Shown here piece after piece: positions 53,301 to 55,644 of a stretch of DNA of 64,000 nt (the stretch's first letter is position 1; each line of letters opens with the position of its first letter). Both the position numbers and the translations under genes were made by a program. The DNA is taken from contig OZ024743.1 of the NCBI GenBank assembly GCA_964016885.1, positions 217,000,001 to 217,064,000 of the forward strand. Reading direction: 5' to 3'. The DNA is from Eledone cirrhosa. Its lineage: Eukaryota. Under the pieces are notes generated by a model, which was not told the origin of the DNA, searched no databases, and saw nothing but the letters and a program-made list of their open reading frames with translations.

Positions 53301-54869
53301 CTTAAAGATTCTTCTGATGTGACGGAGATGATGAGGAAGAGGAGAGAAACAATTAGATAAAAGGTGGTGGAATGTTGTTACTGAACGAGTGAATGAAGGA
53401 AATATTGCAATAGACTAATAAACAAAGAAAATATTCGTGAAAAAAATGAAAGTGTTGATTATGTGAGGGGAAACTTCAAAAGAAAGGAATAATAATATCA
53501 TAGAAAAATCAACAAGATGATATTGAAAATCAATAAAACACTTTTTCATACTGTTATAAAACAAATCTAAAACGTAATGCAATTTTTTTATGAGGATGAA
53601 AAGCATCGATATTGAAATTGGAATATATTTTCTTTAGAATGTTTGATTGTATAATTACAAGATTTTCCCTTATTTCTCTTTTTATATTTATCAATGCAGC
53701 GATTTTTTTTGTATATATTTCATTAATTCTGCATTATTTTGTTCGTATAGTTCGTTTTCACTACTGATGTTTTTAATGTTTTTATTATCGTCGACTGGTT
53801 TCCTTTCTTTGTCATGTATATTTGATCTACCATTATTTTGTGAACTTTTAGTTGTGTAAAGACTCTATTAAAAAAAAGTAACGATTATTACAGTGGTATG
53901 GTTTTTCCGGACTATTAACCTCATCTATTGTGTTTCATCTACACTATTTCGATCGGTTTATTTTCCAAACGTCTTCGATTTACTCATGAAACTGTATCAG
54001 ATATTTTCCTCCTAAGCTCCGATGTTTATGATAGCTATAAATTTTCATTTCTTTGGCAATATAAATATAAATATAAAGTTATGACTATGTATGAACTATG
54101 CTTGAAGATCGATTAGCAGATACAAAGGCCAAATTATTAAAACAGTTAGTCCATGAGTTCGTATTTCGTTGTAAGTACTTTGTCTTATATTAGCGATAGG
54201 AAAGTTAATAGATTTGTCTAAGTATATAAAACTACATTAAGCAGCTGAAGTATATTGTGAACAAAAACAGGACATAATTGAAATGAAGCTGTGATAAATA
54301 TCCATGTCGATACACTTATTTATATGATGTAAACATTTCTTATTTACGTATCTCGCATTTTCGACCTACGGAGAAATTCGTTAATATGACATGTTTATCT
54401 TGCTTAAATGCTTCAATGCGTGTGTTTACAACCACATTCCTACTAGCTTCGGTTAAATTATGTACTGTTTAAATAGACACGTACACACTCACACACACGC
54501 ACACGCACACACACACATACACACGCATGTATGCATGTATGTTTGTATGTATGTGTATTCATATGTTTATATATTTATTTATATATGTTTATATATATGT
54601 GTGTGTGTATATATGTATGTATATATGTATGTATATATGTATGTATATATGTATATATGTATATATGTGTATATATGTATGTATATATGTGTATATATAT
54701 ATATATATATATATATAGTTTTGAGGTTTTTTTTATATGAAATCGTGTGTCGAAACAAATATTGTTATACTTGGGGAGCGTCATATTTGTGTAATATTAC
54801 CAGAATTAATAACAGAACACACTCACTGTTTGGTAGGTTTTCTCTTCTCGCTTCTGTCTCTTTTATATA

Positions 54870-54917
54870 TAGTTTATCATAAATCTTTCGTTGCACATCT
54901 GCAACATCGTCAGTGGT
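54870..54917 (-). ncRNA. hammerhead ribozyme motif downstream of the GIY-YIG ORF
   Basis: Same CTGACGA-tgttgcagatgtgcaac-GAAA-gatttatgat sequence as 36965-37002, on the same strand as the ORF. Confidence 0.72.
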
Positions 54918-55155
54918 GCTATATTTTCCTCCTGTTGTATTGTATGTCTACGCCATTTTTATTCAGTCTGTCTATATATTTATTTATTTATTTGCTTGTT
55001 TGGTTATTTTATTTTGTCTTCTTTGCGCATTGTTTGCGTGAGTGTATAGTGTTTGTTTGCTGTCTAGTGTGTGTTTATGTGCTTGTTGTTATTGTGCTTG
55101 TGTATGTATGTATTTATTTATTTATTTATTTATTTATTTTATTTTATTTACTTAT

Positions 55156-55462
55156 TTATACTTCTCTTAGGTCAGTGTTGTTTGTTTGGGTGTTGTTGTT
55201 ATTCCATTCATTCTTTCTCTTTAGCCTTGGTCTTCTAATTTCTATTTCACTGGCCTCTCTGATTTGCCTATCTGCTGGGTCATTTCTATTTTTAGTTATT
55301 ATTCTAATTTCTATGTTGTCTATGTTACCGTCATGTTGTTGTCTAGCATGTTCGTATGGTACTGACCCGTTTTTTCGTCCTTTTAGTTCCCCCCAGTTTT
55401 GGTCTATCCTTTCACCTATGCTACGAGCTGTCTCACCTATGTATGTTGTGTCATGTTTCTGC
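55156..55462 (-). pseudogene. Penelope-like GIY-YIG endonuclease fragment
   Basis: TYIGETARSIGERIDQN..SVPYEHARQQH..IRII..DRQIREASEIEIRRPRLKRKNEW shows the YIGET, catalytic Arg, His pair and RxxxE motifs. Confidence 0.9.
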
Positions 55463-55644
55463 AATATTACACAAATATGACCATCCCAAGTATAACAATA
55501 TATATATATATATATATATATATATATATATATATATATATACACACACACACACACACACACACACACACACACACACACACACACACACACACACACA
55601 CACATACACACACACACACACATATATATATATATATATATGTA

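Follow-up and report, generated by a model that had tools for sequence, protein, structure and literature searches.

Penelope-like elements (PLEs) with a GIY-YIG endonuclease (EN) were described in PMC8557442, the parts of which used here report that the 5' end bears an inverted 5'-truncated copy, that one end only carries a tail of 30-40 bp and that microsatellites are favoured. The same parts characterize Neptune and Nematis by a C-terminal EN and a CX2-5CxxC linker, and cite Arkhipova 2006 for the clade definition. According to the portion of PMC11167929 drawn on here, a PLE protein cleaves both strands in vitro and extends them, two internal RNA starts bound the tail, hammerhead cleavage is not required by the protein, and the RNA has an AC-rich stem-loop. 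The excerpts of PMC3846280 report an inverted pLTR that is 37 bp shorter than the direct one, as well as microhomology at 5' joins and deletions. Two cephalopod repeat papers, in the passages used here, treat Penelope elements in bulk only. No description of the family analyzed here was found in the literature searched, and its standing as a new member of the PLEs is provisional.

The copy studied here occupies positions 54717-55499 of a 64,000-nucleotide window (the whole stretch of DNA that was analyzed), which consists of AT-rich repeat DNA with 32.6% GC and abundant microsatellites. We conclude with high confidence that this copy is a damaged, 5'-truncated, EN-bearing Penelope-like insertion, likely of the Neptune type and likely formed when a TA repeat was cut and the RNA was copied from both broken ends. 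The features of the locus, together with two related copies in the same window, are as follows.

54527..54716, no strand: TA/TATG microsatellite target, left flank
54717..54760, minus strand: one-sided tail of 44 nt; the copies at 54717, 36633 and 11504 each have it at a single end
54761..54868, minus strand: pLTR terminus, internal to the tail; all short arms begin at 54761, the inner start
54864..54870, no strand: TATATA site of a ~100-bp loss; the segment is held by the 36633 copy and most other copies
54876..54917, minus strand: predicted hammerhead motif of the minimal type I, with its core at 54913 and the register read by hand
54926..55155, minus strand: A-rich 3' UTR, 230 nt, 59% A
55156..55464, minus strand: C-terminal part of a PLE GIY-YIG endonuclease, 5'-truncated within the GIY-YIG core, as judged from homologs and other copies
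55461..55464, minus strand: 4-nt microhomology between the ORF break and the inverted arm (8/9 with one slip)
55461..55499, plus strand: inverted 5'-truncated terminal arm, 38 nt, beginning at the inner start and without the tail
55498..55641, no strand: (TA)n(CA)n(TA)n target, right flank
36633..37218: head-to-head stub of the same family; it has two hammerheads, carries the tail at its left end alone, and shows 9 mismatches between its arms over 266 positions
11081..11504: head-to-head stub of the same family, without a hammerhead, tail on the right only

Read on the minus strand, the locus runs from (TA)22 through 38 nt of inverted terminus, the ORF fragment, the A-rich UTR, the hammerhead and the terminus into TA/TATG repeats. 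The first-pass annotation had given this order of GIY-YIG, A-rich UTR, hammerhead, terminus and (TA)n, and the mapped coordinates bear it out. Its second claim, that the 5' truncation lies inside the endonuclease and is capped by ~38 bp of inverted terminus beside (TA)n, held as well: positions 55463-55501 repeat the terminus in inverted form, aligning with 54798-54759 over 40 bp at 92.5% (E 1e-9), and adjoin (TA)22 at 55498-55542. At the other side, the terminus end at 54717 abuts (TA)n. The outer edge of the tail is likely the outer RT start, and the tail length of 44 nt is uncertain by 2-4 nt, with its AT merging into the target. The copy is usable as an anchor for the family and is atypical as a copy.

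The endonuclease fragment reads YIGETAR at 55443-55423, contains EHARQQH and RQIRE, and ends at a stop at 55158-55156 (minus strand). A phmmer search of 1.84 billion proteins returned 91 matches at E<=1e-3, the best at 3e-17 with 49% identity, and the longer ones have the order RT-linker-EN; the PLE-type C-terminal endonuclease proposed earlier is thereby supported. The YIG motif was located by pattern in 72 of the 91 matches, and the motif counts were taken within those 72. A CX1-6CxxC linker, Zn-finger-like, was present in 29 of the 33 homologs with at least 70 aa upstream of YIG, two core cysteines in 47 of the 57 with at least 25 aa upstream, and YxDD upstream in four of the five with at least 250 aa. 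Downstream of YIG, YxDD was found in none of the homologs, including three that have more than 150 aa past the motif. In the endonuclease alignment, G, R, R, H, H, D, R and Q are invariant, and the family carries the residues that define the PLE-type GIY-YIG (CCHH; catalytic R, H, E, N). The His (55398) and Asn (55219) codons are changed in the window copy, and nearly all other copies differ there. Pfam GIY-YIG matched 7 of the 24 homologs tested, no Pfam family matched the 113-aa frame of the fragment, two word-index protein searches with the fragment (longer and near lengths) gave no matches, and the best hit of the PDB profile search was not below E 0.06.

The endonuclease lies at the C-terminal end of its ORF, with the stop at 55158 followed by the UTR and the terminus. 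Because the longer homologs have an RT and the linker upstream and none has an RT downstream, the closest homologs point, by their domain order, to a PLE of the Neptune/Nematis type; Nematis, which shares the linker, may be the type instead of Neptune. The Naiad/Chlamys type (N-terminal EN followed by RT, no hammerhead) was rejected, as the EN ends the ORF here and a hammerhead comes after it. The position of the CX2-5CxxC linker lies upstream of the break in the window copy. The tBLASTn check for an upstream RT proposed earlier turned up none in the window: the 91 homologs gave 92 HSPs, all on this fragment. Compared with the Neptune EN+ PLEs in the consulted parts of PMC8557442, the family is alike in its C-terminal GIY-YIG with CCHH-type residues, in the linker and RT of its nearest relatives, in its microsatellite bias, inverted truncated copy and one-end tail, and in the hammerhead of its pLTR. 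Unlike those elements, it has a tail of 44 nt rather than 30-40, and a linker and RT were seen in its homologs only.

Read sets of other organisms, coded X, were used to compare further copies. The stretch shares sampled words with the runs of 15 coded organisms (X4-X19), and 7002 contigs of X1 align to it; the family is high-copy in the organism of X1. In the three sets with EN contigs longer than 300 nt, the contigs are nearly identical to the window, with only 4-9 differing letters, so the family would be young or common to close relatives. The contigs of X1, X4, X5, X6 and X8 and the reads of X22 all have one extra base behind 55448. By this comparison, the window copy is frameshifted near 55449, likely through a 1-bp deletion, and upstream of TTYIGET the homology continues out of frame as far as 55464. 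The open frame there, previously read as protein, is incidental. Past 55464, the contigs of X4, X6 and X8 extend by 230, 255 and 89 nt, respectively, and are identical in their first 30 letters. The ORF is placed as breaking at 55464 because these contigs continue there with one common sequence. Read by hand, the extension adds the front half of the core as VY-x-I-x-C-x4-C-x6-YIGET; the phmmer match P0008 has the same spacing.

The hammerhead core CUGACGA starts at 54913; an additional U, helix II of 6 bp and GAAA come next. In the register read by hand, helix III has 2 bp (A-U and G-U) and helix I has three of four pairs. A descriptor made of the core, an optional extra base, a stem and GAAA matched the window three times (54913 on the minus strand, 36965 on the plus strand and 36931 on the minus strand), each time within the studied family, against an expectation of 0.015 matches per 64 kb (200 shuffles, stem of at least 6); shuffles of the element gave 0 of 2000. 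A relaxed scan added six weak matches, none with GAAA plus a short clean stem. Rfam had no match in the whole window at the gathering threshold or in 54700-55520 at E<=10, the exact 32-nt pattern was absent from metagenome contigs, and the folding program recovered helix II only. The hammerhead had earlier been drawn at 54917-54870. The motif itself stands by the descriptor and the shuffles, and its 3' limit is revised, as closure at about 54876 fits better and is most likely. Closure at CUA (54872-54870) was rejected, since helix I then fails.

A second common variant of the motif accounts for 98,241 of 181,741 depth in X1 and for the majority of X22 reads. It has three base changes, which give a G-C at the helix III pair and a U at the cleavage position. 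This variant supports the predicted register, and it also suggests that the putative hammerhead activity is weak. The traits of a PLE minimal hammerhead are present: the core boxes, the extra nucleotide after A9, G10.1-C11.1 and a long helix II; position 15.2-16.2 forms a wobble palindrome only. The motif resembles the metazoan PLE minimal hammerheads of PMC4209133, in the parts of that paper used here, in its intact core, 9/10.1 nucleotide, G10.1-C11.1, long helix II and tiny near-palindromic helix III, and in the dual opposite-strand motifs 100-700 bp apart or less. It differs from them in a helix I with three of four pairs against 4-5 bp and in the wobble palindrome at 15.2-16.2. The hammerhead is probably either carried along as a passenger or used as a processing signal that acts as a dimer or with the help of protein; insertion would not depend on it.

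The terminus and hammerhead of the 54717 copy are 92-98% identical to those of the 36633 copy and 84-89% identical to the 11080 copy. Because they belong to the same sequence family, the palindromes at 36633 and 11080 are interpreted as stubs of this PLE family that lack the protein, an assignment that these alignments support. Of the link to an autonomous PLE that the first-pass annotation had drawn from this copy, the shared family is borne out (84-98% identity), and no RT of the autonomous element was recovered from the window. At the centre of the 36633 copy is a 9-nt loop without microhomology, which resembles a tight fold-back. In the 11080 copy, which stops short of the hammerhead, the arms meet at a 6-nt microhomology. 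Its left arm is interrupted at 11111-11216 by a SINE-like fragment, accompanied by an apparent, diverged duplication of ~11 bp. The inverted ends and TA flanks of such palindromes could suggest TA-targeting MITE or foldback DNA transposons, the inverted 38 bp being a terminal inverted repeat. We consider this extremely improbable: one end is always 44 nt longer than the other, the long arm enters a PLE endonuclease gene, and the arm lengths and centres vary per copy, which already largely refutes it.

Between the terminus and the hammerhead, the 54717 copy lacks ~100 bp that correspond to 36785-36881 of the 36633 copy. In X22, 149,650 reads run on into this segment, which also occurs in X4, X5 and X8, and its loss in the 54717 copy likely post-dates insertion. 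The absent segment (36785-36881; 11296-11369) holds a GACC-N3-GGTC hairpin that both palindromic copies keep, with different loops. Free-energy folds of the terminus and of this segment were no better than shuffles (z -1.7 to +0.4).

A further alternative holds that the palindromes are a separate non-autonomous family of retrozymes (small circular ribozyme RNAs) that shares only an end with the PLE, the 54717 copy being a chimera. Non-LTR retrozymes related to PLE pLTRs have been described (bioRxiv 10.64898/2026.07.22.740005), and, in the sections of that preprint used here, they resemble the stubs in being non-coding and hammerhead-bearing; unlike them, the stubs are arranged head-to-head rather than head-to-tail and one copy carries the PLE coding end. 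The read sets offer this reading two further points: X7 covers the terminus and hammerhead (nine contigs) and leaves the EN uncovered, and in X6 the inner ~50 bp of the terminus are common to other, commoner families (depth 8797 vs. ~33, loose ends divergent). Against it, head-to-tail tandem units are absent from all three window copies, and the hammerhead is of the minimal PLE type (extra U, long helix II), not of the canonical retrozyme type. The EN and hammerhead contigs also agree in depth in X4 (81.7 vs. 83.1) and in X6 (33.4 and 33.7, with 33.1 for the terminus piece), and 55,768 reads of X22 go from the hammerhead side upstream into the UTR (loose end 54945). We therefore regard the retrozyme alternative as improbable. 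The depths in X8 show no simple match (EN 73.5 and 47; hammerhead pieces 36.5 and 37.5). With the A-rich UTR at 54958-55159 masked, no read or contig spans the bridge from the ORF to the hammerhead, and a colinear ORF-UTR-hammerhead linkage in other copies is supported only indirectly, by the X22 reads that enter the UTR, by the agreeing depths in X4 and X6 and by X22 joints between the terminus and the EN (below). X7, the depths in X8 and the inner ~50 bp in X6 are neutral or count against the linkage.

All three window copies of the PLE family combine a tail-bearing long end with a short end that begins 44 nt further in, so the EN+ PLE trait of an inverted 5'-truncated copy with a one-sided tail is seen in 3/3. 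A (TA)4+ run is at most 3 bp away from five of the six ends, vs. 6.4% of window positions, and 22 bp away from the sixth. At the inner start (~54756-54773), a 7-bp hairpin with an AACA loop is predicted in all three copies, although the fold is not significant (z -1.1 to -1.7). The published portion of PMC11167929 considered here offers a comparison in Poseidon PAc of Anolis, which is alike in having two fixed RT starts bounding the tail and an AT-rich target, and in an AC-loop hairpin, here weakly predicted at the inner start. Unlike the present family, PAc belongs to another clade and is characterized biochemically, whereas the evidence here is sequence only and the target is a TA microsatellite.

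The joins between the arms overlap by 4 nt in the 54717 copy and by 6 nt in the 11080 copy, with no overlap at 36633; microhomology is thus found at two of the three joins. At a random join, 4 nt would be expected with a chance of ~2% and 6 nt with ~0.3%. These short overlaps at internal joins likely record the stitching of two copied ends, and two separately primed cDNAs are favoured because a 38-nt arm fused mid-gene is no simple mirror image. A long palindrome with a later central deletion would look identical, and the join step stays inferred.

That last possibility corresponds to an alternative in which a single cDNA, or an antisense RNA as proposed in PMC3846280, primed itself into a long palindrome; a subsequent deletion between microhomologies would have removed the centre and left the 38-bp arm. 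In its favour are the 36633 copy, a near-perfect palindrome with its 9-nt loop and no microhomology, and the less common TTGTTG variant carried by both arms of the 11080 copy. Microhomology deletions are moreover known from the 54717 copy (~100 bp) and, in the available part of PMC3846280, from Adineta Penelopes. The Adineta vaga Pen2/Pen2a elements in that part of the paper are alike in their shorter inverted pLTR, their tail and the microhomology at 5' joins and internal deletions; they differ in having TSDs of 8-10 bp, which are unreadable inside (TA)n here, and the paper favours self-priming. Fold-back alone, however, fails to explain the fixed 44-nt inset of every short arm, which two RT starts fit (Frangieh 2024). 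In X22 (a RAD-biased library, likeness set to 80), six of the 15 joints listed out of 39 connect opposite strands of the terminus and the 3' end of the EN, within 54758-54868 and 55185-55216, respectively. The six lie at six different points, three with four starts and three with one start. So many distinct joints also speak against self-priming, though later deletions could yield them too. We judge self-priming to be unlikely, while giving it real weight.

Under the preferred reading of copying from both broken ends, a full-length source elsewhere would have supplied the RT-EN protein and the RNA, and the EN would have cut both (TA)n strands. One DNA end would then have primed at the outer start, with ~850 nt copied up to a stop inside the GIY-YIG core, and the opposite end would have primed at the inner start, with ~38 nt copied. 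Both cDNAs would have been joined at the 4-nt microhomology, and later decay would have brought the ~100-bp deletion between TATA repeats, the 1-bp deletion and substitutions. The palindromes at 36633 and 11080 would result from the same event with both cDNAs halted early.

A more general form of this mechanism, which we advance tentatively and rate a little below an even chance, is that a Neptune-type RT starts at two fixed sites around an AC-loop hairpin, a behaviour demonstrated to date in vitro for a Poseidon element only, and that microhomology unites the ends of the cDNAs primed from the opposite sides of a single TA break. If this is true, the 38-nt arm fused mid-gene would directly document the final step of PLE integration. 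Against the preferred reading of copying from both broken ends stand the join at 36633, one of three, which has no microhomology, and the tail of 44 nt, slightly longer than the published 30-40 bp.

The layout is already published for the PLE class; the 54717-55499 copy is ordinary except for the overlaps at its joins, and it reveals no new kind of element. For repeat annotation, the result means that many MITE-like TA-flanked palindromes in this genome are Penelope-like retrotransposon stubs. A high-copy family, moreover, would let start sites and junction microhomology be counted, which could test the unvalidated last steps of PLE integration.

Other repeats in the window have a similar appearance. 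Another, unrelated family shows the same head-to-head footprint at 55644-56168 and 10864-11069, and also at 5873-5964 and 26945-27053; it has an 87-nt one-sided tail and no match to the hammerhead descriptor. It adjoins the studied PLE family at two places in the same TA tract. Because the two families sit side by side in one TA tract, repeated insertion into one microsatellite is suggested. A third two-armed, TA-flanked family lies at 5008-5928 and 11576-12558, and one of its arm ends (11580-11610, minus strand) reads like the beginning of a hammerhead core (CUGAUGA) that the TA tract truncates.

A SINE-like repeat of ~190 bp, which we presume to resemble an octopod SINE, is present in more than 12 copies (11111-11216; 15058, 15703, 18016, 19216, 19825, 28001, 30916, 41941, 43091, 49258, 59196 and 60263). 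At 2734-3642, inverted repeats of 117 bp (93%) surround a 131-aa frame, which we take to read like a mariner transposase. Short palindromes of other families were seen at 4786-4945, 12677-12858, 17086-17200, 27138-27342, 29203-29316 and 56152-56213.
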